Assembly (NCBI GenBank): GCA_030593145.1
Contig: JAUVHU010000006.1
Location: 1,121-65,120, forward strand
DNA from: Desulfobacteraceae bacterium
GTDB taxonomy: Bacteria > Desulfobacterota > Desulfobacteria > Desulfobacterales > ETH-SRB1
Length of the DNA: 64,000 bases
Direction: 5' to 3'
Below are positions 4,865-59,679 of the stretch, piece by piece (position 1 is the first letter of the stretch; each line of letters begins with the position of its first letter). Below the pieces are notes generated by a model that saw only the letters and a program-made list of their open reading frames with translations, did no database searches and had not been told where the DNA came from. The position numbers were made by a program, and so were the translations under genes.

Positions 4865-6646
4865 TTGAAAGCAACCGAACCTCAATATCAGCAGGCGTTG
4901 CCTGAAGAATTTTCCGTCACCACACTTGAAAAAAATTTAGCTGCTTTGGCTACCATCAATGAGAATTTATTTCAGCGTATATGCCTGCCGGTTGATGGTA
5001 CCCATGTCCATTTTCTCAAAAACGGCGAAATTAGCTATCAAATAAACCAAACCCTTTTTCCATTTGTCTTGGACAAAGAAAAGCTGGAAGAGACATTGAA
5101 AGATGTAAATAGTTCGAAAGATATCCTGCTTTTCGGTATTGGACTGGGCGAGCAGCTTAATTATTTGCTCGAACGGTTCACGGAGGTCGGAATCACAGCC
5201 TGGGATCGGGACCCCTGGCTTATTCGCCTGGCGCTGATGCAGAGAGACTACAGTCACCATCTTCGTTCCGGCCGGCTGCAACTGCGTATGGGCGTTGATA
5301 TTTTGGATATCGTTGATATGGCTAAAAACACCCCTGTCGTGATTCATCCCTTGTTACGTTCGTTTTACAAAAATGAGTGGAAATTACTTAAAACCGGCGT
5401 TGGAGAAAAGCGAGCCATTATATGTTCGGGCGGGCTTTTTGTGGACGATGTAAGTAATGCTCTGGAAGGGTTTGGTTATACACTTTACACATTAGACGTA
5501 ACAAGGTTATCTGTTGAAGAAATATCGCTAAATATCAAACGATTCAATCCTCAGGTGGCTTTTGCCGTTAATTATACAAACGGTCTTGCAGAATTGTTCG
5601 AAAGTCACGGCGTAGATCTGATTTGCTGGGAGGTAGATCCTGCCACAGACCACCTTAAGCCGATCAGTACAAGCTCGGATCGTGCCTATGTCTTTACTTA
5701 CCGAGAAGCTAATGTTGAGGAATTTGTCAAGGCCGGGTTTAAGAATGTAGAACATCTTCCCCTTGCTTCTGATACTGAAAAAAGATTGCCGACACAACTT
5801 TCCCAAGAGGAACACGACATCTATGACGCCAAATTGTCTTTTGTTGGTTCGAGCATGACAGAAAATGCGATATCCCTCCGTAAAATCTTTCTTTCACAAT
5901 ACAAGGCTTGTCAGGATGGATCTGCTGATGCGGTGGAAGAGGGAAATCGTCTTTTAGAAGAGATTTTATCCGTGCAGCGGCAAAATTTCTCTGTTTATGT
6001 AATCCCTGATCTTTTAGATAAATATTTTTCCGGCTTCATCAGCTACCTTTTGAAGCTTCCCGGCGCCCATAATCCATTCATCCTGGTTGGTGAAATTGCG
6101 GCAGCGGAAAAGCGGGCTAACTACATTGCAAATCTGGGCAGCCTCGGTGTAAAGGTCTGGGGTGATGATGGGTGGCTGAGTACAGAGCAATTTGGAGTAA
6201 AGTATATGGGGAGCGCCGGACACACATTTGAGATCAACAAGATTTACAGTGCATCCAGCATCAACGTGGATATCAACAGGTTATATCAGATGGATATTAT
6301 ACCGATGCGGATTTTTGATATCATGGCCTGCGGCGGTTTTATTCTGGCCGAATACAGCAAAGAGTTAAGTAACATCTTTGAGATAGGCAAGGAGGTTGAA
6401 ACATACAGCACGTTAGACGAATTGGTCTCAAAAGCGACCTACTATCTTGATCATGAATCCGAAGCATTGGAAATCGCAAAGCGGGGCAGGGGAGCAGTAC
6501 TTAAAAAGCACACGATATCCGGTAGGGTGAAGCATATGCTAAAGGCCTGCGTTAAAGAATGTTCACCGTTTTCCGACGTGCAACCGACAACCGACAACGA
6601 ACAACGGTCAACGGATAACGGCCAACGGCTAACCGATAACGGATAA
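4865..6646 (+). CDS. Maf-N-terminal-like module fused to CgeB/DUF3880-type glycosyltransferase domain
   Basis: The N-terminus parallels the Maf protein at 23761 (LEKNLAAL..INENL vs LEQNLNVL..KDPDL; LLFGIGLGEQLNYLL vs IFMGLGLGYHLDLFF). The C-terminal INVDINR..MRIFDIMACGGFILAEYS..TLDELVSKATYYL is CgeB-like. The last ~20 codons (QPTTDNEQRSTDNGQRLTDNG) are read from a heptamer array. Confidence 0.55.
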   Translation: MKATEPQYQQALPEEFSVTTLEKNLAALATINENLFQRICLPVDGTHVHFLKNGEISYQINQTLFPFVLDKEKLEETLKDVNSSKDILLFGIGLGEQLNYLLERFTEVGITAWDRDPWLIRLALMQRDYSHHLRSGRLQLRMGVDILDIVDMAKNTPVVIHPLLRSFYKNEWKLLKTGVGEKRAIICSGGLFVDDVSNALEGFGYTLYTLDVTRLSVEEISLNIKRFNPQVAFAVNYTNGLAELFESHGVDLICWEVDPATDHLKPISTSSDRAYVFTYREANVEEFVKAGFKNVEHLPLASDTEKRLPTQLSQEEHDIYDAKLSFVGSSMTENAISLRKIFLSQYKACQDGSADAVEEGNRLLEEILSVQRQNFSVYVIPDLLDKYFSGFISYLLKLPGAHNPFILVGEIAAAEKRANYIANLGSLGVKVWGDDGWLSTEQFGVKYMGSAGHTFEINKIYSASSINVDINRLYQMDIIPMRIFDIMACGGFILAEYSKELSNIFEIGKEVETYSTLDELVSKATYYLDHESEALEIAKRGRGAVLKKHTISGRVKHMLKACVKECSPFSDVQPTTDNEQRSTDNGQRLTDNG

Positions 6647-6686
6647 CGGATAACGGACAACAATGATTAACGGACAACAGATAACA
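6580..6686. repeat. 7-nt-period degenerate array, unit CGGAYAA
   Basis: ccgacaa ccgacaa cgaacaa cggtcaa cggataa cggccaa cggctaa ccgataa cggataa cggataa cggacaa. It spans the stop codon at 6644-6646. Confidence 0.85.
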
Positions 6687-7760
6687 ATGCCCAATGACCC
6701 AAAAGTAAGCGTTATTGTTCCAACATATAATAGGGCAGATATGATAGGATTCTGTATTGAGGCAGTCCTGTCTCAAACTATGCAGGATTTTGAACTCATC
6801 ATTGTTAGCGATGGCTCTACTGATGAAACGGAAATAGTAGTCAAAAATTATCATGATCCCCGAATATTATTTTTTGAAAAAGAAAATGGAGGACAGGCTT
6901 CAGCGCGTAATTTGGGCATAATCAAATCAATAGGAGAATATATATCCCTGTGTGACGATGATGATATATTTTATCCGGATCACCTAAAAACATTATGCGA
7001 TTTATTGGATACTCATAGAGATGTAGGATTGGGATATTCAGACGCAATATGGATATACAAGGATGCTTCAATAAAGCCTGAGGTAAGATTTTCGGAAGAT
7101 TTTGACAAAAAAAATCTGGAGAACTTCAACTATATCACAACGCAAACCGTCCTGTTCAGGAGATCATGTCTGAAAAATACCGAGCTATTTAATGAAGACC
7201 CATGTCTTAGGAATGGCTTGGAAGATTGGGAATTCTTTTTACGGTTTTCCGACAATTATGCTTTTTCTCATATAAAGAAGGTTTCATCTGAATACAATAT
7301 ACATGAAGGGAACTCATTTCACTCCGATTCAGGTTATGATTACAACAAAGCCTTCTTTCATGTTAGGACACAGAGATTTCAATATCTCACGGCAAAATTT
7401 GGCCATTTTATTTTTGATCATGTTGATCACATGTATCCATATCATTTGGTTCAATGTTATCTGAATAATGGAAAAATCAATGAGGGCCTTGAAATAGCTC
7501 AAAAACTTCAGCAGATTTATATGACATATAGCAAGAATAACAACAAAGCGCCATTTGCGGAGTTAGTGATCCTTTTTTCTCTCGGTATAAGCAATTTTGC
7601 CGCAGGTTATGAAACAAAAGCCAATAACTTCTTCAGAATTATCATTGACCACCCCTCCTACACATTAATTAAAGACCAATTTGACGAGTTTGCCAACCAG
7701 TATGTAAACAGAATACCTAATGCGGGACTTAAAGCCCTATTGAGGAAATATTTCCTGTGA
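6687..7760 (+). CDS. glycosyltransferase family 2
   Basis: The longest ORF starts at 6663 inside a repeat array. ATG 6687 gives MPNDPKVSVIVPTYNRADMI..LIIVSDGSTDET, a canonical GT-A/GT2 N-terminus, followed by an acidic CDDDD motif. Confidence 0.75.
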   Translation: MPNDPKVSVIVPTYNRADMIGFCIEAVLSQTMQDFELIIVSDGSTDETEIVVKNYHDPRILFFEKENGGQASARNLGIIKSIGEYISLCDDDDIFYPDHLKTLCDLLDTHRDVGLGYSDAIWIYKDASIKPEVRFSEDFDKKNLENFNYITTQTVLFRRSCLKNTELFNEDPCLRNGLEDWEFFLRFSDNYAFSHIKKVSSEYNIHEGNSFHSDSGYDYNKAFFHVRTQRFQYLTAKFGHFIFDHVDHMYPYHLVQCYLNNGKINEGLEIAQKLQQIYMTYSKNNNKAPFAELVILFSLGISNFAAGYETKANNFFRIIIDHPSYTLIKDQFDEFANQYVNRIPNAGLKALLRKYFL

Positions 7761-7941: not shown

Positions 7942-8020
7942 GTTATCTGTTGACAGTTGACAGTTTTCCGTTCACCGACGGACCACGGAATACGGACAAC
8001 GGAGAACAATAAATAACGGA
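7942..8020. repeat. 7-nt-period array, two polarities in phase
   Basis: gttatct gttgaca gttgaca gttttcc gttcacc gacggac cacggaa tacggac aacggag. Confidence 0.75.
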
Positions 8021-9344: not shown

Positions 9345-9411
9345 AGTATGAACAACGGACAACGGTGAACAATGCATAACGGACAACAGACAACAGACAA
9401 CGGACAACGAC
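9326..9411. repeat. 7-nt-period array (ACGGACA family) covering the pseB stop and pseC start
   Basis: gaacgga caacgag .. aacaacggacaacggtgaacaatgcataacggacaacagacaacagacaacggacaacga. Confidence 0.8.
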
Positions 9412-10691
9412 CCTTTATTCCTTATGGTCGTCAACAGATCGACGAAGACGACATACAGGCTGTTGTAGATGTACTTCGCTCCGACTGGCTGACCACAGGC
9501 CCAAAAGTGGGCGAGTTCGAGCAGGCGGTTGCTGATTTTGTGGGAGCCAAAGAAGCCGTAGCAGTTAGTAGCGGAACGGCAGCACTGCATGCAGCCATGT
9601 ACGCCATTGGCATCGAGCCGGGTGACGAAGTGATTGTCCCTCCAACGACTTTTACTGCAACGGCCAATTGTGTTGTCTTCCAAGGGGGAACGCCTGTCTT
9701 TGCAGATGTTGATCCGTGTACATTGCTGATTGATCCTAACGAAGTGGAGGCAAAGATTACTCCGAAGACAAAGGCAATCATAGCAGTGGACTATGCAGGG
9801 CAACCTTGCGATTACGATGCCCTTCGAAGAATCGCCGAACGCCATGACCTGATTCTTGTTGCTGATGCCTGTCATTCCCTTGGTGCGGAATACAAAGGCC
9901 GCAAGGTTGGTTCTCTCGCCGACATGACCGTTTTCAGCTTTCATCCTGTTAAGCACATTACAACCGGCGAAGGAGGAATGATAACAACTGACAATTCGGA
10001 ATTTGCCGAACATATGAGAATGTTTAGAAGTCACGGCATCACTCGCGATCCGAAGCAATTCGCTCCTTCAGAGGAAGTCTCCGCACCCTCTGCCCCAAGC
10101 CCAATACTCCAAGCTCCATGCGCTCTGCCCTTTTACTACGAGATGCAAGATCTTGGTTACAACTACCGTATCACGGACATCCAGTGCGCACTTGGTCTTT
10201 CCCAATTAAAAAAGCTGCCGAAGTTTCTGGAGCGAAGGTGTGAGATAGCTGCTTTATATGACAAAGCCTTAGCGGACATCTCCGGTATAGAACCTCTCGG
10301 GCTTCGCGCCGACGTCTTACCGGCCACGCAAAGCGCTTTGCGCCCTGCGCCTTGCGCCCTGCGCCCTGCTCCAAGCTCCATGCTCTCTGCTCTCTGCTCT
10401 CTGCGTTCAAGTCACAGTTATCACCTCTATGTCGTCAAAGTGGATTGTAAAGCCTCTGGAACCAATCGAAACACCCTATTTCAGTCTTTGCGTGAGAAAG
10501 GTATCGGCGTAAATGTTCATTATATCCCAGTTCATCTTCACCCATATTATCAGAAGCGATTTGGTTATGAAAATGGCCTCTGTACTGTAGCAGAAGAAGC
10601 TTACGAACAGATGCTATCACTCCCCATGTTTCCAGGAATGAGTGATGAAGACATCAAAAATGTTGTTACTGCAGTGAGGGAGACAATATAA
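9372..10691 (+). CDS. pseC: DegT/DnrJ/EryC1-family aminotransferase, PseC-type (UDP-4-amino-4,6-dideoxy-N-acetyl-beta-L-altrosamine transaminase)
   Basis: IPYGRQQIDEDDIQAVVDVLRSDWLTTGPKV, SFHPVKHITTGEGG (PLP lysine) and GYNYRITDIQCALGLSQLKKL. The gene lies directly after pseB. It carries two repeat-derived in-frame insertions. Confidence 0.8.
   Translation: MHNGQQTTDNGQRPFIPYGRQQIDEDDIQAVVDVLRSDWLTTGPKVGEFEQAVADFVGAKEAVAVSSGTAALHAAMYAIGIEPGDEVIVPPTTFTATANCVVFQGGTPVFADVDPCTLLIDPNEVEAKITPKTKAIIAVDYAGQPCDYDALRRIAERHDLILVADACHSLGAEYKGRKVGSLADMTVFSFHPVKHITTGEGGMITTDNSEFAEHMRMFRSHGITRDPKQFAPSEEVSAPSAPSPILQAPCALPFYYEMQDLGYNYRITDIQCALGLSQLKKLPKFLERRCEIAALYDKALADISGIEPLGLRADVLPATQSALRPAPCALRPAPSSMLSALCSLRSSHSYHLYVVKVDCKASGTNRNTLFQSLREKGIGVNVHYIPVHLHPYYQKRFGYENGLCTVAEEAYEQMLSLPMFPGMSDEDIKNVVTAVRETI
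10056..10130. repeat. repeat-derived in-frame insertion 1 inside pseC
   Basis: ..ctccgcaccctctgccccaagcccaatactccaagctccatgcgctctgccc. It encodes FAPSEEVSAPSAPSPILQAPCALP. Confidence 0.6.
10305..10409. repeat. 7-nt-period array inside pseC (in-frame insertion 2)
   Basis: ctttgcg ccctgcg ccttgcg ccctgcg ccctgct ccaagct ccatgct ctctgct ctctgct ctctgcg. This is the reverse-complement flavour of the AGCATAG/AGCTTGG arrays. Confidence 0.8.
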
Positions 10692-23670: not shown

Positions 23671-23745
23671 ACGACAATGCAATAAGCAGTGAACAGACAA
23701 CATACAGCGGAAAACGGACAGCAGTGAACGGTGAACGATTCGCCA
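23671..23745. repeat. 7-nt-period array between the TPR-GT2 gene and maf
   Basis: cagtgaa cagacaa catacag cggaaaa cggacag cagtgaa cggtgaa. Confidence 0.75.
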
Positions 23746-23760: not shown

Positions 23761-25719
23761 ATGAAGAAAAATGCTATTCTTGAACAAAATTTAAATGTAT
23801 TGTCCCAGAAAGATCCTGATCTCGCGCGAAGGGTTAGAGAAAGCACAGGAAATGGTAATTATAAAATAATTCGATCAAAAACAGGCTATCCAAACGTGAT
23901 AATTGAGAAAGGATTTGATGCAGAGGCGCTTTATGACAATAGTGACCCCATAGGATATTGTCGTCAATATCTGGAATCACTCAACATTAAATACGCCCCT
24001 ATTGTGATCTTTATGGGTCTGGGGCTTGGGTATCATCTCGATCTATTTTTCAAAGAGTACAGCAAACGGCTCAAAACAGAAGAGATCGTTATCTTCGAAG
24101 AGAATATTGGCCTATTTCGGCTGGCGCTGGAGTTGGGTGATTTCCGTAAAATTATCTCCCATCCCAATATTCACTTTTTTATTGGTGAAGACCCTGAAGC
24201 TGCTTTCCCAAAATTGAGGACTAAAATTCTTATAACTGGAAAAAATTGGATTGTTCTAAGATCTGTTAAAATCATTCCTATTCCTGGGAGTGTTTTTCAG
24301 GCTAATGAATACTACCTAAGAGCACTCAAAACGGCTAAGGATGCCGCTAGGCAAGTAATGATCACGGCTGGGAATGATCCTTTTGATTGCCTGGTTGGCC
24401 TCGAGCACATTTTTGAAAACCTGAGGGATATATTTTCCAACCCAGGTATAAACCTTCTTTCTGGAAGGTTTAAGGGACGGCCAGGAATCTTGGTAGCATC
24501 AGGACCGTCATTGAATAAGAATATGCATCTTCTCGGAGACCTTAGGGCTCGTGCCCTCATTATAAGTTGTGACGCAAGCCTTACTCCTCTCATTAAAAAT
24601 AGAATCCGCCCACATTTGGTAACCTCCCAAGAAAGAACTCCTGGGGTTGAACTCCATTATTCCTGCCTTAATGATTTTGATGGTATCTGTTTTGTTGGAT
24701 GCCCTATCCTAATGCCTGAGGTTTTTGCTGCATTCAAAGGGAAGAAGATCATTGTTTACAGGGCATATTCCCAGTTTGACTGGCTAGAGTGTGAAAAGGG
24801 TTCCCTGATTACAGGTATATCTGTGGCCAATATGGCATTTAAGATTCTTGAGTCATTAGGATGCGACCCTATCATCCTTGTTGGCCAGGACCTTGCCTTT
24901 TCCGAGAATGGGGATACCCACGTTGAGGGCAATGTATATGGAGAGATAAGCAAGGAAGCATTATTGAAAAATCCCACTATTATGCTCGAAGGTAATGACG
25001 GAAGGCACGTTAGGTCTGAGAGGTCGTGGGAGATTATGAAAAATACATACGAGGAGGACGTTGAGGCTTATCAGGGTAAATGTATCAACGCAACAGAGGG
25101 AGGGGTCAGGATTCGAGGTACCGAGGTAATGTCTTTTAATGAGGCAATACAAAAGTATTGCACAGAAGAGTTTTGGCCGGAGTTAATAATAAACGAAATC
25201 TTTTCTGATTTTGAGAAAAAAAATATTGATGTTGAAGCGGAGCTGAAAAGGATCCACACAAAGGCTATAGAAACCCGGAGAACAGTACAGAATACAATCG
25301 ACCAGTTCCTGGAGGCCCTTGAGGAGGCCCGCCTTGCGGAAAAGGAGATTATCCAACCCTTCATTGACAACGGTTCGGCTGTTGAGACTGAAAGACTTGT
25401 GAATATCGAAAAGAAATTCCTTGATCTGAGTAGAACGCTTAACGACCCAGGAGACAGAAAATTGTATGATATTACCGCCCATACCTTACAGCCCTATGAT
25501 ATATGGTTTACCCATGAGCTGAGCTTCCTTAAAGACATTTACACGGATAAGGAGTGCTTGTCAGCGGCAACGGTGCTCAAGATGAAAGAATGGTTCGCTG
25601 TAGTAGGACATCTTCTTGTCTGTACGAGGGATGTTCTGGAGAAGACTGAAAAAAGGCTGGATGAGGAGGTTGGGGGGGTTAGAGGGTTAGAAGGGGAAAG
25701 CATAGAGCATAGAGCTTAG
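23761..25719 (+). CDS. maf: motility accessory factor (Maf; DUF115/MptE-like flagellin nonulosonic-acid transferase)
   Basis: GRPGILVASGPSLNKNM..ALIISCDASLTPLIKNRIRPHLVTSQER is the DUF115 core. It lies next to flagellin and pse genes. The longest ORF starts at 23731 in a repeat array, and the C-terminal GGVRGLEGESIEHRA is read from an array. Confidence 0.75.
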   Translation: MKKNAILEQNLNVLSQKDPDLARRVRESTGNGNYKIIRSKTGYPNVIIEKGFDAEALYDNSDPIGYCRQYLESLNIKYAPIVIFMGLGLGYHLDLFFKEYSKRLKTEEIVIFEENIGLFRLALELGDFRKIISHPNIHFFIGEDPEAAFPKLRTKILITGKNWIVLRSVKIIPIPGSVFQANEYYLRALKTAKDAARQVMITAGNDPFDCLVGLEHIFENLRDIFSNPGINLLSGRFKGRPGILVASGPSLNKNMHLLGDLRARALIISCDASLTPLIKNRIRPHLVTSQERTPGVELHYSCLNDFDGICFVGCPILMPEVFAAFKGKKIIVYRAYSQFDWLECEKGSLITGISVANMAFKILESLGCDPIILVGQDLAFSENGDTHVEGNVYGEISKEALLKNPTIMLEGNDGRHVRSERSWEIMKNTYEEDVEAYQGKCINATEGGVRIRGTEVMSFNEAIQKYCTEEFWPELIINEIFSDFEKKNIDVEAELKRIHTKAIETRRTVQNTIDQFLEALEEARLAEKEIIQPFIDNGSAVETERLVNIEKKFLDLSRTLNDPGDRKLYDITAHTLQPYDIWFTHELSFLKDIYTDKECLSAATVLKMKEWFAVVGHLLVCTRDVLEKTEKRLDEEVGGVRGLEGESIEHRA

Positions 25720-25760
25720 AGGAGCTTAAAACTGAAAGCTCAAAGCAGGTAATAAACCCC
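25668..25760. repeat. 7-nt-period array over the maf stop codon
   Basis: ggttaga gggttag aagggga aagcata gagcata gagctta gaggagc ttaaaac tgaaagc tcaaagc. Confidence 0.75.
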
Positions 25761-27033: not shown

Positions 27034-27092
27034 GAACAGAGGTCAGAGGTCAGATATCAGTAACAAATGACCGTTGACAAATGACAACAATT
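27034..27092. repeat. 7-nt-period array in the flagellin leader
   Basis: aacagag gtcagag gtcagat atcagta acaaatg accgttg acaaatg acaacaa. Confidence 0.7.
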
Positions 27093-28575: not shown

Positions 28576-28589
28576 AACCTTTAAACCAA

Positions 28590-29930: not shown

Positions 29931-29998
29931 TGAGACTTTGAGCGAAGAGCAAAGAGCATGGAGCTCAGAGCGAAAAGCTAAGAGCATTTTTAGCGAAA
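29931..29998. repeat. 7-nt-period array upstream of the AAA ATPase gene
   Basis: gagcgaa gagcaaa gagcatg gagctca gagcgaa aagctaa gagcatt. Confidence 0.75.
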
Positions 29999-30122: not shown

Positions 30123-30200
30123 CAGGTGTTAAGTGTTAGGCGTTAGGTGTTAAGAGCTTGATAAAACAGATAATTACTTTAACCTGACACCTGATCCCTT
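30123..30200. repeat. 7-nt-period array with downstream inverted arm
   Basis: aggtgtt aagtgtt aggcgtt aggtgtt aagagct, then the complementary ttaacctgacacctga ~20 nt downstream. Confidence 0.7.
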
Positions 30201-33895: not shown

Positions 33896-33995
33896 GTAGA
33901 GCATAGAGCAGAAGGGCAGAAGATTAGAGGGTCAGAAGGTGAGAAGGTGAGAAGGTGAGAGGGTGAGAGAGGTTAGAAGGTGAGAGAAGGAGAAT
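33893..33995. repeat. 7-nt-period array starting on the fliD stop codon (left arm of the four-helix-bundle cassette)
   Basis: taagtagagcatagagcagaagggcagaagattagagg gtcagaa ggtgaga aggtgag aaggtga gagggtg agagagg ttagaag gtgagag. Confidence 0.8.
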
Positions 33996-33997
33996 GT

Positions 33998-34381
33998 TTG
34001 GAGAGAAAAAAGAGCATACGTCATTTTCGGGATCTTGAAGTTTACAGGCGGGCTTTTGATGCGGCAATGCAGATATTTGAAGTTACGAAAAAGTTTCCTC
34101 CGGAAGAAAGGTTCTCCATGGTAGATCAAATTCGAAGGTCGTCGCGTTCTGTATGTGCCAACTTGTCGGAAGGATGGCGGAAAAGGCGTTATTTGGCTGT
34201 CTTCAAAAATAAAATTACAGATTCAATGCAGGAAGCGTCCGAGACACAGTGCTGGTTGGAATTCTGTCTTGCCTGTCGCTACATCAAGCAAGATGTTTTC
34301 GATAAACTTGATAATGAATATGAGCAATTGATTGCAATGTTAAATTCCATGGAAATGAACGCTGCAAAATTCTGTTACTAA
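33998..34381 (+). CDS. four-helix-bundle protein (23S rRNA intervening-sequence protein family)
   Basis: IRHFRDLEVYRRAFDAAMQIFEVTKKFPPEERFSMVDQIRRSSRSVCANLSEGW is the family signature. The likely start is TTG 33998 after the gaaggag RBS. The longest ORF starts at 33980. Confidence 0.8.
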   Translation: MERKKSIRHFRDLEVYRRAFDAAMQIFEVTKKFPPEERFSMVDQIRRSSRSVCANLSEGWRKRRYLAVFKNKITDSMQEASETQCWLEFCLACRYIKQDVFDKLDNEYEQLIAMLNSMEMNAAKFCY

Positions 34382-34473
34382 CCTTCTAACCTTCTGATTT
34401 TCTAACTTTCTGCTTTTGAGCCATGCTTAATTCCATGAAGGTCGGAGGATTAGAAGATTAGAGGATTAAAGGA
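34379..34473. repeat. 7-nt-period arrays after the four-helix-bundle gene (right arm, inverted, plus a GGATTAG array)
   Basis: taaccttctaaccttctgattttctaactttctgcttttgagc is the reverse complement of the GGTTAGAAGG flavour. It is followed by ggtcgga ggattag aagatta gaggatt aaaggaa. Confidence 0.8.
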
Positions 34474-34535
34474 ATATTTACGACTCGATTAGTTGTGAGC
34501 GAAGTGAACTAAATTAACAAGGAGGATATGCTCTT

Positions 34536-35594: not shown

Positions 35595-35635
35595 GCCCCC
35601 CGATTCCCTGACCCCTGATTTCCGACACCCTTCCC
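35595..35635. repeat. short 7-nt-period array upstream of tolQ
   Basis: ccccgat tccctga cccctga tttccga caccctt. Confidence 0.6.
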
Positions 35636-40904: not shown

Positions 40905-40975
40905 ATTTCTGTCTTTTATCAAACTTGAATCCCGTTTCTATCGGGAAGCATTTTTCAAAGGTCTTTCATGAGCAT

Positions 40976-41473
40976 ATGATTATCAAGACCATAGGTATAG
41001 ATCCAGGTCTATCTGCAACAGGTATTGGTATTGTCAGGGGAAGAGGATTAAAGATAGATGGCTGTTCCTATGGCAGCATTAATACCTCAAAAAATATTTC
41101 ATTGCCGGCCCGCCTTAATCAAATCTTTTCCAAGCTTCTTAAAATTTTAGAGGATGAAAAACCGGACCTTATGATTGTAGAGGATATATTTTCTCTGACT
41201 AAGTATCCAAAAGCCGGTATAACATTAGGGAAAGTTACAGGTGTAATTCTCCTTGCCGGATGCCATGTTAATGTGCCTGTTACAGAAGTCCCTGTTCGTG
41301 AAGCCAAACAGGTTTTGACAGGAAACGGTAACGCAAGTAAGATGCAGCTTGAAAAGGCGGTCAGGCATTTATTAAACTTGTCAGATCCCATTAGCCCTGA
41401 CCATGCTTCAGATGCATTAGGCCTTGCTCTTATTGGCCTTTATCGATATGAAGGGATTGAGTTAAGGAATTAA
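40976..41473 (+). CDS. ruvC: crossover junction endodeoxyribonuclease RuvC
   Basis: MIIKTIGIDPGLSATGIGIV..DLMIVEDIF..ASDALGLAL. The longest ORF (40898) runs through an upstream repeat. Confidence 0.85.
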   Translation: MIIKTIGIDPGLSATGIGIVRGRGLKIDGCSYGSINTSKNISLPARLNQIFSKLLKILEDEKPDLMIVEDIFSLTKYPKAGITLGKVTGVILLAGCHVNVPVTEVPVREAKQVLTGNGNASKMQLEKAVRHLLNLSDPISPDHASDALGLALIGLYRYEGIELRN

Positions 41474-41500
41474 AGGATTGAGGGATTGGGGAATTAAAAT
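41466..41500. repeat. short 7-nt-period array over the ruvC stop codon
   Basis: aaggatt gagggat tggggaa ttaaaat. Confidence 0.55.
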
Positions 41501-41546
41501 CAATATAATACCTTCAATTCCTAAATTCTTTATATTAAGAACTATT

Positions 41547-47134: not shown

Positions 47135-47135
47135 A

Positions 47136-47548: not shown

Positions 47549-48328
47549 CTATTCTTCCCATTTGAATTTTGCATATAGCGGAAAATGATCTGATAGATAT
47601 ATACCATAAATTTTATCATGAACTACCTTGCAATTCACTGAAATAATACTGCCGCGATATAGAATCCAGTCAATATGATCTCCATTTCTATTTCCTGAAA
47701 ATCCATGATGTGTTCCGGGGAAAGGCTCACTAAAGGTGTTTTTAAAATAAAGCTTATTTGTTGAATTTGATTTTTTGTTCTGCCCTGTTAGCATCTTATA
47801 ACATGGACAAGAAGTGGTCGCATTAAAGTCTCCCGTAAGAATTACAGGCAGTTCAGATGGAAGACGTGACAGCCGCTTCATAATCAGCTCCGCGCTTTTA
47901 ACTTGGATAGTAGGGTCGAAATCAAAGTGGGTATTAATATATATAAGCGAATGATCATTGCTTTCAAATATACCAATTGTGCATTGTCTTGGCCAGAGAC
48001 TTTTCCTGGAACGGCTGGGTATCATTGGAGTTGGGCTCAAGAAAAAGTGCTCACTATGGATGCATTTCCAGGTTTTTTTATAGAAAATAATATTGTTTTG
48101 CCAAAATAAAGGGGCGGGGTTTCTTTTCCCAATAAAGCTGTACCCGGTCAGGATGTTTTTTAGAAAATCTGTTTGAAAATCGTTTGCTTCCTGTAAGCCA
48201 ATGAAATCAGCAGGATATTTATCGAAAAGGTAGGGAAAGCATTTCTTTCGGTGATCCCAGTTATTGGAACCGTCGTCTGCCAGGCCAAAGCGAAGATTGA
48301 GTGTTATAACTGAAAGCATGTTATTCAT
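47549..48328 (-). CDS. endonuclease/exonuclease/phosphatase (EEP) family protein
   Basis: VITLNLRFG..IGLQEA..TGDFN..SDHFPL are EEP catalytic motifs. Confidence 0.75.
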   Translation of the reverse strand: MNNMLSVITLNLRFGLADDGSNNWDHRKKCFPYLFDKYPADFIGLQEANDFQTDFLKNILTGYSFIGKRNPAPLFWQNNIIFYKKTWKCIHSEHFFLSPTPMIPSRSRKSLWPRQCTIGIFESNDHSLIYINTHFDFDPTIQVKSAELIMKRLSRLPSELPVILTGDFNATTSCPCYKMLTGQNKKSNSTNKLYFKNTFSEPFPGTHHGFSGNRNGDHIDWILYRGSIISVNCKVVHDKIYGIYLSDHFPLYAKFKWEE

Positions 48329-48365: not shown

Positions 48366-48392
48366 AGCTGTTCACGGTTGTTGGTTCACAGT
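48366..48392. repeat. short 7-nt-period array (inverse GAACCGT flavour)
   Basis: gctgttc acggttg ttggttc acagtat. Confidence 0.5.
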
Positions 48393-51905: not shown

Positions 51906-52136
51906 AAATACCTCATTCCAAGGGGTTTGCGCAAGCTCTAGGCCCTTACCATCCGGCAATTATCTTTGATTTGCTTAATCGTTCCTTGAAGTTATGATAT
52001 TTTTATTGTTACAATAAACAGCTCAATTTAAATTATAATAACTTATTGATCAAAAAACAAATGGTAAGTTCGAAAGTTTAGTGACTAAAGTTAAGGAATA
52101 AAGCTGACGATCTGATAAAGAGCTGATGGTAGAAGA

Positions 52137-54945: not shown

Positions 54946-56559
54946 ATGATTCATAAAATATTTAAAAACCCGATAACCAGAAAAAGGTATTTTCGTTTCA
55001 AGGAGGTTAAACGGGCTTATATTTCATTATGGATACTTGTTATTCTTTATCTTGTAAGTCTTTGTTCTGAACTTATATGCAATGACGCTCCTTTGTATGT
55101 CAGGTTTAACAGTGAATCATATTATCCAATATTAAAATTTTATCCTGCGGATCTGTTTGCCGGAAACGGTGAAAAAACAAGGCCGGATTACAAAAAAATA
55201 AATAGTAGTGACTTCTTTAAAAAAAATCCTGATAATTTTATGATTTTTCCGCCGGTTCCTTACAGTCCTTATGAGAGCATTAATCCGGAGTTGATTCCGG
55301 TTTCAGACAATATAACACTTACATTTATTCCCATGCCGAGAATCGGCACAGTCAATATAGAAAAGTATTTTTCAATTGCCAGGTCTGCTTCATTCGGTTT
55401 TTTTATCGGCATGGGAGATGAAGAAGTAGAAAACCTTGTGCTGACCGAATATATTAACATTCCAGAAAAAGTCAGGCATGCTGTTTCAAAGCGGTTTGCG
55501 AATGAGAACGCGCCGCGTTTAACCGTTTCAGGAATAAAAGGTTATGATGGAGTAGAAACCGTTATCTCACTTTCTGCTTTTCGCCGGAGAAGTAAACCTC
55601 CGGAAACCGTCAGGATGACGTTCAGAGAGGCTGGAACTATTGATCAAAAACCTGAAAAATATGTTTTAAACAAGGAACTCAAATTTATTGAAAACAGCAC
55701 AGGGCATGATAACAGGGGGATATGGAATTATCTTTCCGATCGTAGCAGGGAAACAATTTTAAATCTTGCGGAAAGACGCTTTCTGGGTCCTGTCGATACT
55801 GTTGTATTGCGGAGCAAGAATCGGTTTTACAAACTTGGCTTTGAAAAACAGGATGTTCGTTTTCCTTTTCCTCCCGCAAAAGGGCATCTGATGGGAATTG
55901 ATTCAGCAGGCAGAGATGTTTTAAGCAGAATCCTTTATGGATTAAGGACTTCACTTACGTTTGGTTTACTGCTTGTAGCATGTTCAATGACCATGGGTAT
56001 TATTGCGGGATCTCTCCAGGGATATTATGGCGGTGCCATTGATATTACCGGCCAGCGATTTATTGAAATATGGAGCGCGCTGCCGTTTCTTTATATTATG
56101 ATTCTTATGGGATCGATCTATGGGCGAAGTTTTTCTTTACTCCTTTTTTGTTACGGGCTTTTTAACTGGATAGGGATTTCTTATTATGTTCGGGCGGAAT
56201 TTCTTCGTTTGCGTAAAAAAGCCTTTGTTGAGGCTGCAAAATGTATGGGGATATCATCATTCAGGATAATATTTAAACATATTCTTCCAAACGCTATGGT
56301 GCCTGTAATAACATTTGTTCCTTTTTCTCTCGTTGGAGCTATCGGAGCGCTTGCAGCTCTCGATTATCTTGGATTCGGGCTTCCGCCCCCAACTCCAAGC
56401 TGGGGAGAACTTCTTTTCCAGGCCCAGCAGTACAGATGGGCCTGGTGGCTTATTCTATATCCATCTTTGTCACTGTTTTTTGTAATGATTCTTGGAGTAT
56501 TTGTTGGTGAAGGAATAAGAAATGCGTATGATCCTAAGAGATACACAAGGCTTGAATAG
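54946..56559 (+). CDS. ABC transporter permease with long periplasmic insert (YejE/OppC-like)
   Basis: HLMGIDSAGRDVLSRILYGLRTSL..; EAA loop FVEAAKCMGISSFRIIFKHILPNAMVPVI. Confidence 0.8.
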   Translation: MIHKIFKNPITRKRYFRFKEVKRAYISLWILVILYLVSLCSELICNDAPLYVRFNSESYYPILKFYPADLFAGNGEKTRPDYKKINSSDFFKKNPDNFMIFPPVPYSPYESINPELIPVSDNITLTFIPMPRIGTVNIEKYFSIARSASFGFFIGMGDEEVENLVLTEYINIPEKVRHAVSKRFANENAPRLTVSGIKGYDGVETVISLSAFRRRSKPPETVRMTFREAGTIDQKPEKYVLNKELKFIENSTGHDNRGIWNYLSDRSRETILNLAERRFLGPVDTVVLRSKNRFYKLGFEKQDVRFPFPPAKGHLMGIDSAGRDVLSRILYGLRTSLTFGLLLVACSMTMGIIAGSLQGYYGGAIDITGQRFIEIWSALPFLYIMILMGSIYGRSFSLLLFCYGLFNWIGISYYVRAEFLRLRKKAFVEAAKCMGISSFRIIFKHILPNAMVPVITFVPFSLVGAIGALAALDYLGFGLPPPTPSWGELLFQAQQYRWAWWLILYPSLSLFFVMILGVFVGEGIRNAYDPKRYTRLE

Positions 56560-56630
56560 GGATTAGAGATCGGAGGTCAGGGGTCGGAGGTCAGAAGGTG
56601 AGAGAAGGTGAGAAGGGGAGAAAAAAGAGA
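56557..56630. repeat. 7-nt-period array starting on the permease stop codon
   Basis: tagggattagagat cggaggt caggggt cggaggt cagaagg tgagaga aggtgag aagggga. Confidence 0.8.
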
Positions 56631-56788
56631 ACATCGAACACCCGCCGTGCTCGCGCACTGTCGCGGCAGGTCGAATGATGAATGTTGATGTCGCTTCGCT
56701 TTTTAATTTAGAAAATAAATAGAGCGGAGCGACTCCATAACTTTAGGTACTTTAGCGCATTTTAGGCATTTTGCTCTTTGCAAGGAAT

Positions 56789-57757
56789 ATGAAATTGCTG
56801 GAAGTAAAAAATATTACTGTTAAATTTGAAACCGATGAAGGTGTTTTCAAAGCTGTTGACGATGTTTCGTTTAATGTAAACAAAAATGAGATAGTCGGAC
56901 TGGTTGGTGAATCAGGATGCGGCAAATCTGTTACAGCATTGAGCATACTGCGCCTTATCCCTTTGCCGTCCGGCAGGATTGAAAAGGGTGAAATCTTATT
57001 CAATGGCAAAGATTTGCTGAAGTTCGATGCTGAAAAAATGAGGAAAATACGCGGCAAAAAAATCAGCATGATCTTTCAGGAGCCTGCGTCTGCGCTGTCT
57101 CCATTGCACAGGATCGGTCAACAGATGGTGGAAACCATTTTGCTCCATAAGAGTAAAACAAACAAAGAGGCCTGGAATATTGCCGAGAACTGGCTGAAAC
57201 GTGTAGGGATACCCGATGCAGGAGAAAGGATGTTTGCTTATCCTTATCAACTTTCAGGCGGTATGCAGCAAAGGGTTATGATTGCAATGGCATTGATGCT
57301 TGAGCCTGATTTCGTCATAGCTGATGAACCGACAACTGCGCTTGATGTAACTATTCAGGCCCAGGTTTTTGAACTTATCCGGGAAATGAGGAAATCACAT
57401 ACTGCTATACTTCTTATTACGCATGATATGGGAGTTATCTGGGAAATGTGTGACAGGGTGATTGTTATGTATGCTTCAAGGATAGTCGAAGAAGGAAGCA
57501 AAAGCGATATTTTCTCAAAACCGGTCCACCCATATACCATTGGACTTCTCAAATCAATTCCTAAACTTTCCGGTAATGCGGGCAGGCTTAAAGCAATACC
57601 TGGATATGTTCCATCACCATATAATTATCCATCAGGATGTTATTTTCGTGACAGGTGTCCGGATGCATTTGATAAATGCAAAAATGAAAAACCTGAATTT
57701 GTTGATCTTGGGCAGGGACACAGAGCCGCGTGTTTTCGTGTGAGAAAAAATGAGTAA
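56789..57757 (+). CDS. ABC transporter ATP-binding protein (OppD/YejF N-half-like)
   Basis: Walker A GESGCGKS, signature LSGGMQQRV, Walker B IADEPTTALD, and a C-terminal oligopeptide-ABC extension (HPYTIGLL..CYFRDRCP). Confidence 0.85.
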   Translation: MKLLEVKNITVKFETDEGVFKAVDDVSFNVNKNEIVGLVGESGCGKSVTALSILRLIPLPSGRIEKGEILFNGKDLLKFDAEKMRKIRGKKISMIFQEPASALSPLHRIGQQMVETILLHKSKTNKEAWNIAENWLKRVGIPDAGERMFAYPYQLSGGMQQRVMIAMALMLEPDFVIADEPTTALDVTIQAQVFELIREMRKSHTAILLITHDMGVIWEMCDRVIVMYASRIVEEGSKSDIFSKPVHPYTIGLLKSIPKLSGNAGRLKAIPGYVPSPYNYPSGCYFRDRCPDAFDKCKNEKPEFVDLGQGHRAACFRVRKNE

Positions 57758-58721
57758 TCAAATTAAAAAATATCCGATAATTGAAGTAAATAACCTTAAA
57801 ACCTGGTTTCCAATAAAACGGGGTGTTCTATCCAGAACAGTTGGATATATCAGGGCGGTTGATATAGCCGGTTTATATATTAACAGGGGAGAAACCCTTG
57901 GCCTGGTCGGAGAGTCCGGATGCGGGAAGACAACATTTGGCAGAACATTGTCAGGTCTGGAAAAACCCAGAACCGGCGAGATGTTTTTTTACGGAAAAAA
58001 TATTCTTGACTTAAGCCGTCGGGAATTAAGGGAATTAAGAAAGAAAATGCAGATAATCTTTCAAGATCCTTTGTCTTCCCTTAATCCAAGAATGAATGTT
58101 CTTGATATAGTTACAGAGGGCCTGGCTGAATTTGGAAAGATAGAAGGAACCAGGGAAGATCATGCAAAAAGGCTTATGAATGAAGTCGGGCTCGATAATG
58201 ACGCTATATATCGTTATCCTCATGAATTTTCCGGAGGACAGAGACAGCGCATTAATATTGCAAGGGCAATAGCTTTAAGACCTGATTTCATTATATGTGA
58301 CGAACCTGTAAGCGCGCTTGATGTATCGGTGCAGGCACAGGTAATAAATCTTCTGATGGATCTTCGGGACACTTACAATCTTTCCTATCTTTTTATTTCA
58401 CACGACTTAAGTGTTGTGAGCGCTATTTCAAACCGTGTTGCAGTCATGTATCTTGGCAGGATAGTGGAAAGCGGGTTAACCGGCGATGTAATCAACAATT
58501 CGAAGCATCCTTACACAAAGGCTCTTATTAATGCTGTTCCGGAACCTGGACATTATCAAAAGGAAAGAATTGTTCTAAAAGGGGAAATGCCTTCTCCTTC
58601 CGCGCCGCCTTCCGGATGCATGTTTCATACACGTTGTCCTGAGGTTATGGAAATTTGCAGGAAACAGGAGCCGAAGGAGACCATGTCTGGTATTCATCAG
58701 GTGTGGTGCCATCTATATTAG
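57750..58721 (+). CDS. ABC transporter ATP-binding protein (OppF/YejF C-half-like)
   Basis: Walker A GESGCGKTT, signature FSGGQRQRI, Walker B ICDEPVSALD, and HPYTKALI..CMFHTRCP. Confidence 0.85.
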   Translation: MSNQIKKYPIIEVNNLKTWFPIKRGVLSRTVGYIRAVDIAGLYINRGETLGLVGESGCGKTTFGRTLSGLEKPRTGEMFFYGKNILDLSRRELRELRKKMQIIFQDPLSSLNPRMNVLDIVTEGLAEFGKIEGTREDHAKRLMNEVGLDNDAIYRYPHEFSGGQRQRINIARAIALRPDFIICDEPVSALDVSVQAQVINLLMDLRDTYNLSYLFISHDLSVVSAISNRVAVMYLGRIVESGLTGDVINNSKHPYTKALINAVPEPGHYQKERIVLKGEMPSPSAPPSGCMFHTRCPEVMEICRKQEPKETMSGIHQVWCHLY

Positions 58722-58830
58722 GTCAGAGGTCGGAACGGGGGGCAGAACTCAGAAGCCAGAGGTCGGAAGTCAGAGGTCGGAGGTCAGAAGTCAGAGATCA
58801 GAAGTCAGAGGTCGGAGATTGGGAAGGAAA
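58719..58830. repeat. longest 7-nt-period array (unit CRGARNT, ~15 units) starting on the ABC ATPase stop codon
   Basis: gtcagag gtcggaa cgggggg cagaact cagaagc cagaggt cggaagt cagaggt cggaggt cagaagt cagagat cagaagt cagaggt cggagat tgggaag. Confidence 0.9.
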
Positions 58831-58871
58831 GTGTAAACTGCAAAATGAAGGATGGCTATAATTCATTTGAA

Positions 58872-58898
58872 AAACTGTGAATCGTGAACCGTAAACTG
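58872..58898. repeat. short 7-nt-period array (GTGAAYC flavour)
   Basis: aaactgt gaatcgt gaaccgt aaactgg. Confidence 0.5.
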
Positions 58899-58907
58899 GT
58901 TATTGTA

Positions 58908-59522
58908 TTAGTTGTTTTCTAATAAGGCTTTGGGTTGTTCGGTTTCAGATTGTTTGATCTCGGACCCGATTATCAAAATCCTGACAGATTCTATTTTTTG
59001 CTTTATTAATTCAACCTGATTGTCATTAAGTTCAAGCAAGGCAGCCTTGTTAAGATGCCCTAATGCTGCTTCAAAGCCGTAAATGGTTCCTTTGCTTGCG
59101 GCTACATCCGCCTTGTACATGAGTATTATCATGTCAATGCTGTTTAAGCGGCTATAAGCGGCTTTAGTGAGATCAGGTGTAGTCCCAAACGACAGAGCTT
59201 TGTTCAGATATAACTTGATACCTTCGAAATCAGGCATGTCAGGCGTATCAAGCAAAGCGTCAGCTCTGTCAATATAATAATTAAAAGCAAACGGAAAGAC
59301 TTCTTCTTTGGAATAAACCGCTTGAATTGATTCAGGTGATTGAGCTCCGGGCAGCATTATAAGTAGATCGGTACCCATGGGAGCAAATTTGCCCTGCCGG
59401 ATTTCAACCGCGCCGTCTGTGATTTTAATATAATACTTGTTTTTATTTGAAAAGCTGGAGCCGATAGTAACAGCAACCAAAAGAATAATGCAGGCCACAA
59501 TATATTTTGTTATTTTTTCCAT
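58908..59522 (-). CDS. hypothetical membrane-anchored protein
   Basis: The likely start is ATG 59522 (MEKITKYIVACIILLVAVTIGSS, a signal anchor). No family was recognised. Confidence 0.4.
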   Translation of the reverse strand: MEKITKYIVACIILLVAVTIGSSFSNKNKYYIKITDGAVEIRQGKFAPMGTDLLIMLPGAQSPESIQAVYSKEEVFPFAFNYYIDRADALLDTPDMPDFEGIKLYLNKALSFGTTPDLTKAAYSRLNSIDMIILMYKADVAASKGTIYGFEAALGHLNKAALLELNDNQVELIKQKIESVRILIIGSEIKQSETEQPKALLENN

Positions 59523-59679
59523 GGTATAGAAACCTTTTTCTTTTTTTACTTCAAAGGCTGTGTGAATGTTGATGAATCCATAAAAAACTATACTTTTTAT
59601 TATATAAAAGATTTGTTTATTATTGTAAACATTTTTTTGCCTGAATATTGCGTGAAAAACAGACATATATCAATGAGTA

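Follow-up and report, generated by a model that had tools for sequence, protein, structure and literature searches.

The short tandemly repeated repetitive (STRR) heptamers of heterocystous cyanobacteria were reportedly described by Mazel et al. in 1990; their canonical units, which we take to be CCCCAGT (STRR1), TTGGTCA (STRR2) and CAACAGT (STRR3), have to our knowledge no established function. The intervening sequences (IVSs) of 23S rRNA genes have been known since about 1990 as well, and their mode of spread has not been established. We analyzed a 64,000-nt stretch of the genome of a Desulfobacteraceae bacterium (GCA_030593145.1, contig JAUVHU010000006.1, positions 1,121 to 65,120; hereafter, the window) in which gene junctions carry degenerate tandem arrays of 7- or 8-nt units. 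The arrays are real, structured in families and biased in orientation, and they are gained or lost between related genomes. One array family travels with a mobile cassette akin to the 23S rRNA IVSs, and the architecture of this cassette is general. The reading that we favor, and to which we give about an even chance, is that the arrays are invasive tandem-repeat families tied to IVS-type cassettes, resized by slippage and kept where they are harmless, with paired arms probably serving as RNase III substrates and lone arrays being largely neutral.

We grouped the units into families: F1, ACGGACA/AACNGNN, including TAACGGA x3; F2, GGTCAGA/GGTCGGA; F3, AGAGCAT/AGAGCTT; F4, the 8-mer AGAAGGTG; F5, the 8-mer GAGGATTA; and F6, GTGTTAA. 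F2 to F5 share the pattern AGAR plus 3 to 4 nt and intergrade inside single arrays. The array class itself is not new, with precedents in the G. metallireducens classes, TAACTGA repeats, STRR sequences and long simple-sequence repeats (SSRs). The first-pass annotation of the window held that no equivalent had been described in a deltaproteobacterial-type genome, a belief contradicted by the Geobacter metallireducens catalogue of tandem 7-, 8- and 9-nt repeats (classes 1 to 3) and GGACCGG x4 elements (Aklujkar et al. 2009, PMC2700814), whose classes resemble three of the families. Both genomes have 3 to 5 degenerate tandem units of 7 to 9 nt, mostly paired in inverted orientation on the two strands with differing distances between partners, at junctions (3′ to one gene and 5′ to its neighbor) and within genes. 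Read on the opposite strand, the class 3 unit MTYCTGA becomes TCAGRAK, to which the GTCAGAA units found at 58.7 kb correspond, class 2 TCTCCGTS resembles ACGGAGA, and class 1 GTTGCTYN resembles RAGCAAC; in a comparison of units only, the reverse complements of these consensus sequences (MTYCTGA, TCTCCGTS[Y], and GTTGCTYN) agreed with F2, F1 and F3 variants at 6 to 7 of 7 positions. The G. metallireducens repeats differ in belonging to Geobacterales, in their shortness and fixed number of about 4 to 5 units, in their interpretation as IHF/HU sites, and in that no link to four-helix-bundle genes has been reported for them.

The second precedent is the TAACTGA direct repeats that MacGregor (2015, PMC4679880) described in marine Beggiatoaceae, cyanobacteria and some Bacteroidetes. 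Like the arrays of the window, they comprise forward heptamers directly upstream of start codons, often without a canonical Shine-Dalgarno sequence, with forward stop codons in all frames, reversed copies inside open reading frames (ORFs) and a patchy distribution across phyla. TAACTGA itself is not among the array units of the window, where the nearest sequence is TAACGGA x3 at 6637-6657. Furthermore, those repeats have one dominant exact unit, beside which related heptamers are rare, whereas the window has several degenerate families, including 8-mers, as well as arrays after stop codons and inverted pairs. STRR sequences resemble the arrays in that several heptamer families form mostly intergenic tandem arrays, but the canonical STRR1-3 units are not those of the window, some of its units are 8 nt long, and its host is Desulfobacterales-like. 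Finally, the arrays fall under the definition of long SSRs (unit of 5 to 11 nt, repeated head to tail beyond what chance would give in the genome; Mrazek 2007), with 17 strong segments compared with about 0.2 expected.

Tandem arrays at the gene junctions

We searched the window and 20 shuffled versions of it for self-matches of at least 70% in 42-nt sliding windows at lags 1 to 15. Lag 7 yielded 163 positions, lag 14 yielded 116, and lag 8 yielded 38, while none was found at the remaining lags or in the shuffles. The lag-7 excess over shuffled sequence on which the first-pass annotation staked its claim was thus present in the window. A local-score scan gave 12 segments (530 nt) at lag 7 and 5 segments (189 nt) at lag 8, against an expectation of about 0.2 segments per shuffled window and 0 to 2 at other lags. 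Intergenic DNA makes up 6.2 kb, or 9.8% of the window, and its pooled lag-7 match was 0.316, compared with 0.253 for coding DNA; all strong segments but one, located within pseC, are at gene junctions.

The same annotation had described about 20 junctions as filled with arrays of a strict 7-nt period, amounting to some 1.5 kb. Sixteen of the 20 listed intervals were significant singly, scoring above all or nearly all local shuffles, and the other four (10056, 23671, 35595, and 48366) were weak, their scores being reached by 3 to 18% of shuffles. The period is not strict, as units of 8 nt are found at 33893, 34379 and 41466 and in part of 56557. Strictly delimited, the arrays total about 0.7 kb, so that the earlier figure was about twice too large.

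Independent assemblies (JGI, ENA, NCBI and Logan) gave identical arrays at related loci; the arrays are therefore not assembly artifacts. The array at 58.7 kb was also present behind the same gene in the Logan assembly of SRR18936876, which is possibly the read set of the window's own genome. The first-pass annotation had rightly set the arrays apart from CRISPR and from repetitive extragenic palindromic (REP) or terminator structures. Their units of 7 to 8 nt stand head to tail without spacers, whereas CRISPR arrays have 23- to 50-nt repeats and unique spacers. REP elements, terminators and known RNAs were ruled out by the anatomy of the arrays, and the window had no Rfam match at the gathering threshold, no tRNA and no rRNA. 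The REP, bacterial interspersed mosaic element (BIME) and REPIN sequences of proteobacteria (Bertels & Rainey 2011, PMC3116915) are likewise abundant short intergenic repeats, often in inverted pairs that form hairpins in operon transcripts; they are non-autonomous, spread within the genome, and are known to stabilize upstream mRNA. However, REP units are imperfect palindromes of 20 to 40 nt moved by RAYT transposases, unlike the 7- and 8-mers described here, and no transposase was found in the window.

A mobile cassette between fliD and fliS

A cassette of about 540 bp, which encloses a four-helix-bundle gene, has the 8-mer arrays at 33.9 and 34.4 kb as its inverted arms (Table 1). The 127-residue protein matches PF05635 (23S_rRNA_IVP; E = 2e-31) and TIGR02436 (E = 4.5e-28), is related to the PDB entries 2RLD and 2GSC, and has more than 100 homologue clusters at 76 to 98% identity, mostly on short contigs. 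The last unit of the 5′ arm is the Shine-Dalgarno sequence AAGGAG of its TTG start codon. In that arm, 81% of the positions are complementary to the anti-Shine-Dalgarno sequence, and the arm is conserved together with the ORF in unrelated contexts.

Comparisons with related loci revealed both filled and empty sites. At locus L028, whose FliS is 79% identical to that of the window, fliD is followed after 55 nt by fliS, with neither array nor gene between them, and homology with the window ends at 33874 and resumes at 34496. Conversely, the segment 33910-34446 is 93.9% identical to sequences of L043 and L045, where it is located between unrelated genes, and 87.6% identical to a copy beside a flagellin gene in L048/L049 (GCA_030668395.1), whereas for the flanking fliS the closest relative reaches only 80% identity. 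A BLAST search of the window with the element detected a partial copy at 56593-56636, consisting of F4 units and the first 19 nt of the leader, and L050 has the same order of units, F2-like and then F4, upstream of its cassette gene as is found at 56554..56636. Judging from its sequence, the array at 56.6 kb is a cassette relic after an ABC permease stop codon. One of several candidates put forward in the first-pass annotation, the footprint of a mobile cassette, thus has direct support for the arrays that start at 33893 and 34379 and for this relic. Within the searchable literature, a pair of filled and empty sites in an mRNA operon is new.

The two arms are predicted to form a duplex of -57.5 kcal/mol, compared with -35.5 +/- 3.9 for shuffled arms, and in the predicted minimum-free-energy fold of 651 nt, a long-range arm stem closes around the ORF. 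IVSs with an S23p/PF05635 ORF are found in the 23S rRNA genes of Coxiella, Leptospira, Salmonella and others (Warrier et al. 2016, PMC4990558). They share with the cassette an ORF of one protein family set within terminal inverted repeats that form a long stem, predicted in our case, and a sporadic, horizontally transferred distribution. In contrast with the IVSs, which lie in helix 9, 25 or 45 of 23S rRNA, the cassette is located in an mRNA operon, with arms made of long runs of tandem 8-mers. The Coxiella IVS is reported to carry tandem GACAGAT x3-4 at its RNase III site, upstream of the ORF (PMC4990558).

We then determined how general this organization is among TIGR02436-type genes. All 15 genes examined, from three phyla, are flanked by 7- or 8-nt arrays; the 15 loci are from Desulfobacterales, cyanobacterial plasmids and one 23S rRNA IVS of Azospirillum. 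Six further Desulfobacterales-type contexts have the same succession of forward array, ORF and inverted array, including an exosortase/kinase context, three type II secretion operons and a divergent second paralogue in L052, the arms of which are made of a different 7-mer, AGGCTGW. Array DNA represented 707 of 3,544 nt beside cassette genes, compared with 202 of 17,682 nt in the rest of these loci, and in the set assembled before the plasmid search, phmmer found no cassette genes other than those already known.

A tblastn search of 72,556 plasmids returned 27 records matching the cassette protein, 25 of them from filamentous cyanobacteria, the lineages in which STRR sequences are classically known. 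The eight plasmid loci that we fetched all carry flanking 7- or 8-nt arrays, with units such as GGGAGCA/CCCCTGC, AGGGGAGC/CCCCCTGC, GGAGAGTG/CTCCCACT and AAAAGCT x15. In one of them, L068 (Pseudanabaena galeata pPg_01, 45762-47097), the four-helix-bundle gene lies between cas6 and cas4 and is flanked by perfect AAAAGCT x15 and AAAAGCC x10 arrays. The Azospirillum lipoferum AZO_p2 locus is inside a 23S rRNA gene (Rfam LSU rRNA, 718 bits) and is therefore a true IVS. Its arms are tandem heptamers, GAGGACG GATGACA GAGGACG GAGGACA and the inverse; the Coxiella GACAGAT is this arm unit in another register and differs from F1 by one to two mismatches.

A purine-rich upstream array is present in 13 of the 15 loci, and the upstream and downstream flanks are predicted to pair better than shuffles in 14 of them (z from -1.9 to -6.7). 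Across cassettes, the predicted arm duplexes range from -54 to -69 kcal/mol, compared with -33 to -45 for shuffled arms. Cross-duplex energies were uninformative as to arm covariation, since purine-rich and pyrimidine-rich arms pair across cassettes as well as with their own partners.

The analogy with STRR sequences drawn in the first-pass annotation gained substance from these plasmids: homologues of the cassette protein on plasmids are almost exclusively from filamentous cyanobacteria, and a 50-kb stretch of Nostoc punctiforme pNPUN02 has GTCAGAA/GCCAGAA/GTCGGAA arrays with inverted partners, the units of the 58.7-kb array and of Geobacter class 3. The same stretch contains an arms-only inverted pair with a cassette-arm unit. 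In addition, a 1-kb intergenic region of pNPUN02 (L070, 10204-11186) is full of inverted pairs of several heptamer families, one of them GTCAGAA/GCCAGAA. We found nothing in the literature on repeat arms around four-helix-bundle genes, such genes are not mentioned in MacGregor's paper or in the Geobacter supplements, and no link between STRR sequences and cassettes is established in the searchable literature. The bracketing of TIGR02436/IVS genes by tandem 7- or 8-nt arms across phyla is thus new, as far as that literature shows.

Placement and turnover of the arrays, and neighboring features

The sense strand of the intergenic arrays is nearly always purine- or A-rich. Both polarities do occur, as first described, but one is strongly favored: where intergenic arrays are reversed, they form the left arm of an inverted pair (6560/6581, 7942/7978, 34378/34445, and 41459/41510), and the arrays internal to pseC are reversed and in frame. 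Solo arrays occur too. Tabulating positions relative to start and stop codons showed that placement is family specific. F1 arrays directly precede start codons (6581, 7978, and 9352), while F2 and F3 arrays begin on or beside stop codons, upstream of intrinsic terminators, and must therefore be transcribed. Junction arrays are in sense orientation and often have stop codons in all three frames. The hairpins of inverted pairs have folding z values from -2.1 to -3.8, and lone forward arrays fold less than shuffled sequence does (z of +1.6 and +2.15). Pairing with the anti-Shine-Dalgarno sequence reaches -4 kcal/mol or better at 53 to 89% of the positions in F2, F4 and F5 arrays, compared with 10 to 13% in the background; F1 and F3 are not Shine-Dalgarno-like.

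These features would suit a post-transcriptional regulon, in which a single-stranded-RNA-binding protein (S1, a cold-shock protein, CsrA or the four-helix-bundle protein) reads the forward arrays and sets translation or mRNA stability. MacGregor proposed a post-transcriptional role for the TAACTGA repeats (PMC4679880), from which the TAACGGA x3 of the window differs by one base. Sense-strand polarity and family-specific placement speak for such a function, as do F1 arrays that replace or supply the Shine-Dalgarno sequence and the start codon, the lack of structure of lone arrays, the anti-Shine-Dalgarno complementarity of F2, F4 and F5, and the conservation of the F2 array of the flagellin leader in another genome. 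However, arrays lie in a convergent 3′ region with no downstream gene (58.7 kb) and inside coding sequence, and the genes concerned have no common theme. Relatives moreover run tolQRAB-pal and ruvCAB (L060) or fliD-fliS (L028) without the arrays, which are therefore dispensable. We regard a regulon as rather improbable. A CsrA lattice was rejected, as only the F1 and F5 families have GGA cores. Also rejected was a promoter-like motif common to several sites, GAAAAACTGTGAA; its 12 matches, compared with 3.5 expected, are mostly partial F1 units, and a longer context is common only to those at 30017 and 58869.

The closest taxon-named RuvB matches, at 81 to 84% identity, are labeled Desulfobacterales, Ca. 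Desulfaltia or Thermodesulfobacteriota. Orthologous junctions differ between relatives in the presence and copy number of arrays. In the syntenic loci L002, L024 and L025, each junction has kept the same array family and conserved flanks, with a different copy number. The tolQRAB-pal and ruvCAB operons of L060, which is syntenic, with 84% identity in RuvB and equal G+C content, have no arrays, and its ruvC and ruvA overlap. Without the tolA-tolB and ruvC-ruvA arrays in L060, gain or loss must occur at about genus scale, and the arrays are dispensable for these operons. Copy-number changes, together with the local perfect duplicates and the 14-, 15- and 21-nt higher orders found in the arrays, are the signature of slipped-strand mispairing.

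It might then be argued that the arrays are nothing but SSRs in the sense of Mrazek et al. 2007, generated and resized in situ, wherever selection permits, by slippage that prefers a register of about 7 nt, their link to four-helix-bundle genes being secondary, for example through Shine-Dalgarno amplification. In many bacteria, heptanucleotides form the most common class of long SSR, as cited from Mrazek 2007 in PMC4679880, and adjacent perfect duplicates, higher orders and copy-number differences at orthologous junctions are what slippage would produce. Furthermore, the fliD-fliS junction of L029 has a different heptamer, GTGAAWR, and no cassette. Nevertheless, a few unit families recur at many junctions, and in Geobacter and Nostoc as well, arms and ORF move as one 94%-conserved unit, the inverted array downstream of the ORF cannot stem from slippage of an upstream array, and arrays adjoin 15 of 15 four-helix-bundle genes. 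Slippage in situ as the whole explanation therefore seems unlikely to us, though hardly negligible.

At the L025 locus, the F1 array between GT1 and GT2 (3560-3790) is broken by an insert of about 190 nt and a GC-rich palindrome (CCGCCCGCC...GGCGGGCAGG), so that the arrays look like hot spots for insertion. In L002 (6700-8150), the GT2 gene and pseB are separated by a 1.4-kb insertion that contains small ORFs and is accompanied by duplicates of the start and end of the GT2 gene. Breakage of L025 arrays by other small insertions would be in line with a DNA-level lattice for nucleoid proteins (IHF/HU), a transposase or a recombinase, which would act through DNA bending or provide insertion targets, as would the toxin-antitoxin-type small genes at array-bearing junctions in relatives. 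Aklujkar et al. read paired repeats in this manner, and ISGme8/9 lie at a fixed distance from class 1 repeats (PMC2700814). However, a period of 7 or 8 bp is out of phase with the DNA helix, the arrays have from 3 to 24 units, unlike defined protein sites, and their transcription-related polarity and translated in-frame copies imply a constraint at the RNA or protein level. We consider such a lattice improbable.

The arrays of pseC are of a particular kind. This gene of the DegT family (9372-10691) is about 55 residues longer than the Pfam profile. Its ATG (9372) is inside an F1 array that is translated as the N terminus, an arrangement conserved in L002, L024 and L025. An alignment of homologues of 382 to 622 residues (P0002-P0120) showed two insertion sites occupied by low-complexity Ser/Ala/Pro/Leu sequence that varies in length and is missing in short homologues. 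Insertion 2 is absent in P0057, P0109 and P0114, and its length differs among the other homologues. At the DNA level, both insertions are reversed arrays, 10333-10404 reading GCGCCCT, GCTCCAT, GCTCTCT, and they fall in gaps relative to the solved homologue ArnB (PDB 1MDO). At insertion site 1, L025 has a clean inverted F2 array, CCTCTGA x5, whose sole changed unit is the third (CCTCCGC), in which the TGA would be in frame, indicating selection on the frame. The N-terminal PIN/PemK "fusions" of many PseC homologues are probably gene-caller read-through across stop-free arrays. No such arrays were found at distant pseC loci from other phyla, and in-frame pseC arrays across a clade are new as far as the searchable literature shows.

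Heptanucleotide phase variation is known for NeuO and HMW1A, and gain or loss of units might similarly switch flagellin glycosylation (pseC and maf-like genes) and other surface genes. The arrays do cluster in the flagellar glycosylation locus, and pseC carries 3 to 4 perfect heptamers, where the loss of a single unit would shift the frame. However, most units are degenerate, and arrays are also found at housekeeping junctions (tol-pal, ruv, and opp). In addition, arrays of up to 22 units showed no single-nucleotide polymorphism and no length change between strains from different samples with 0.4 to 0.5% flank divergence. Phase variation was rejected on the basis of this invariance, which makes contingency loci most improbable.

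A few observations concern neighboring sequences rather than the arrays as such. A recurrent motif, composed of GCTATAAT, TTCATTTGAAAAA(A)CTGTGAAYCG and then a short F1-type array, is found in the window at 58818-58899 and 30000-30045 and in L025 at 5114-5153. The copy at 58.86 kb points into the convergent gene and thus may mark the promoter of an antisense or small RNA. The block upstream of pseB listed in Table 1 is 90 to 93% conserved in four genomes, exceeding the neighboring coding DNA, and may be a leader, a promoter or a noncoding RNA. A dispersed element of about 140 nt that bears no relation to the heptamer arrays is found at 26717-26857, with a partial copy at 40875-40912 (minus strand), and in L002 (3685-3825) and L060 (17388-17573). 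It is 77 to 93% identical between genomes, in differing intergenic contexts, has no Rfam match and could be a miniature inverted-repeat transposable element or a noncoding RNA. On the minus strand between the maf-like gene and flagellin lies a toxin-antitoxin-like cassette (25843-26522), with an XRE-type helix-turn-helix ORF (25843-26031) and an ORF (26289-26522) whose N terminus appears DUF433-like by eye. A gene for a peptidase M99, a type of enzyme that governs helical cell shape, adjoins a bactofilin gene (45593-47519), which suggests that the cells are curved or helical. Pfam gave no match for ORFs 35000-35446, 44678-45577, 50592-51959 (minus strand) and 58908-59666 (minus strand), and NCBIfam gave none for 35000-35446 and 58908-59666. 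Lastly, P0140 and P0288, labeled "Anaerolineae bacterium," share 97% (cassette protein) and 83% (RuvB) identity with the window, and their source genome is probably mislabeled or mis-binned.

Table 1. Arrays, cassette parts and conserved block of the window, in order of position (TRF, Tandem Repeats Finder)
Position	Strand	Feature	Observations
6560..6689	+	F1 hairpin and array between two glycosyltransferase genes	Lag-7 score 41.5; short inverted arm 6560-6578, then ~12 CAACGGA/TAACGGA units into start region; orthologues in L002 and L025 have fewer units
7761-7935		Conserved block upstream of pseB	L002 8152-8327; L024 5799-5886; L025 5159-5246
7942..8007	+	Inverted F1 pair (GTTGACA... then ACGGACA...) upstream of pseB	Hairpin z = -2.15; ACGGAG unit supplies pseB Shine-Dalgarno; layout repeated in L002 9902-9997
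9352..9409	+	F1 array over pseC start	Lag-7 score 23.5
10062..10127	+	pseC in-frame insertion 1	Array-derived, weakly periodic now
10320..10412	+	pseC in-frame insertion 2, inverted F3 array GCGCCCT/GCTCCAT/GCTCTCT	~10 units; lag-7 score 40
23687..23737	+	Weak degenerate F1 array upstream of maf-like gene	Marginal significance
25676..25746	+	8-mer GGGTTAGA units, then F3 AGCATAG units	At/after maf-like stop codon; upstream of intrinsic terminator 25814-25838
27037..27060	+	F2 array in flagellin 5′ leader	60 nt upstream of ATG; lag-7 score 12; F2-family array at same position relative to flagellin in L048/L049
28514..28552	+	F3 array AGAGCAT/AGAGCTT starting on flagellin stop codon	TRF, local score; upstream of strong terminator 28588-28619
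29940..29985	+	F3 array, divergent region upstream of fliD	TRF, local score, shuffle test
30126..30152	+	F6 array GTGTTAA/GTGTTAG	TRF, local score, shuffle test
33896..33997	+	Cassette 5′ arm: two AGAGCAT units, then ~10 AGAAGGTG-type 8-mers	Lag-8 score 32
33998..34381	+	Four-helix-bundle gene, PF05635 23S_rRNA_IVP/TIGR02436	TTG start, between fliD and fliS
34378..34411	+	Cassette 3′ arm: inverted 8-mers CTAACCTT x4	Complementary to 5′ arm; lag-8 score 13.5
34445..34476	+	Forward F5 array GAGGATTA	Lag-8 score 14; local hairpin with 3′ arm; fold of 34370-34540, z = -3.8
35596..35630	+	Weak inverted F2-like stretch upstream of tolQ	Marginal significance; absent from syntenic L060
37789..37878	+	Degenerate F2 array after tolA-like stop, then GAACCGT (F1-type) array before tolB	Syntenic L060 junction without array
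41459..41532	+	8-mer array GGAATTAA/GGATTGAG and inverted partner 41510-41532, ruvC-ruvA hairpin	Lag-8 score 11.5; hairpin z = -2.7
48367..48392	-	Very weak F1-like stretch	Sense to minus-strand gene 47549-48328; not significant
56554..56636	+	Composite F5/F2 array, F4 8-mer array, partial cassette leader GAGAAAAAAGAGAACATCG	After ABC permease stop
58719..58823	+	F2 array GGTCAGA/GGTCGGA/AGTCAGA	~13 units, convergent junction; starts on TAG stop of oppF-like ABC ATPase gene (57750-58721); 58749-58817 by TRF: period 7, 9.9 copies, score 75, 21-nt higher order; lag-7 score 25.5, reached by 0/300 shuffles; z = +2.15, predicted unstructured; 53% of positions complementary to anti-Shine-Dalgarno sequence
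58875..58899	+	Short F1-type array CTGTGAA TCGTGAA CCGTAAA	Lag-7 score 8, 0/300 local shuffles; preceded by TATAAT-like hexamer and TTCATTTGAAAAA motif; 85% match upstream of pseB in L025; similar motif at 30010-30040

Origin of the arrays

If the arrays are tied to IVS-type cassettes, as we propose, they would represent the Desulfobacterales counterpart of the STRR, TAACTGA and G. metallireducens class 1-3 repeats, and the purine-rich families at least would be the building material of the cassettes. A cassette is laid out as a forward array, the last unit of which serves as the Shine-Dalgarno sequence, a TIGR02436/PF05635 four-helix-bundle gene and the same array inverted. A complete one (33910-34446) was inserted between fliD and fliS, and a truncated copy is found at 56.6 kb. 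Arrays without an ORF take the form of hairpin-forming inverted pairs, solo arms (e.g., 58722-58817) and in-frame loop insertions in pseC; those of F1, F2 and F3 may derive from cassettes as relics or have spread by the same process. Slippage would resize the arrays, and they may persist only where they are harmless, i.e., at transcribed junctions or in surface loops with an open frame. A role in RNA processing is what one would naturally infer from the 23S rRNA IVSs: paired arms would form an imperfect RNA duplex of about 40 bp cut by RNase III as in those sequences, and the cut would uncouple the flanking cistrons. Lone arrays would be spacers without structure, many of them Shine-Dalgarno-like, and their influence would be modulatory at most.

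Several points weigh against this proposal. In the window, the cassette gene is physically tied only to the 8-mer family with contiguous F2-like units, and the ACGGACA and AGAGCAT arrays are linked to no ORF. The extension of the cassette model to the latter two rests on resemblance, ACRGAxx units being similar to the arms of the Azospirillum and Coxiella IVSs and AGAGCAT being present at the outer edge of the 5′ arm, and on the general association between arrays and cassette genes. It might also be that cassettes insert into, or amplify, pre-existing slippage-prone repeats. Cleavage by RNase III is proposed purely by analogy. The family-specific placement, with F1 before starts, even giving start codon and Shine-Dalgarno sequence, and F2 and F3 after stops, would fit a regulatory function too, and arrays are conserved at orthologous junctions. 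With nearly all genes on one strand, the polarity bias is inseparable from the direction of replication. Finally, we know of no mobility enzyme for these cassettes.

The cassette origin can be taken further, in a tentative version that we find doubtful but worth stating, in which TIGR02436/PF05635 genes and their cognate arms form a widespread, hitherto unrecognized class of mobile cassettes, with the STRR, TAACTGA, Geobacter and window arrays as its footprints. The autonomous form would consist of arm, ORF and inverted arm, the non-autonomous form would consist of arms only, and the 23S rRNA IVSs would be copies that landed in rRNA. The Avd-like protein would recognize its own repeat unit, so that each protein lineage would have its own arm unit; for movement or maintenance of the element, it might enlist RNase III, a reverse transcriptase or both.

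Heptanucleotide repeats have been known in cyanobacteria since 1990, in Geobacter since 2009 and in Beggiatoaceae since 2015, without an established origin or function. The arrays described here have practical consequences: they break short-read assemblies, they make gene callers fuse neighboring genes, as in the PIN-PseC "fusions," and they put low-complexity loops into enzymes. The evidence presented here ties heptanucleotide repeats to the 23S rRNA IVSs and may help explain the cyanobacterial repeats. If the link holds genome-wide, the binding of the protein to its repeats, the cleavage of operon mRNAs by RNase III and the copying of arms to new junctions become testable.

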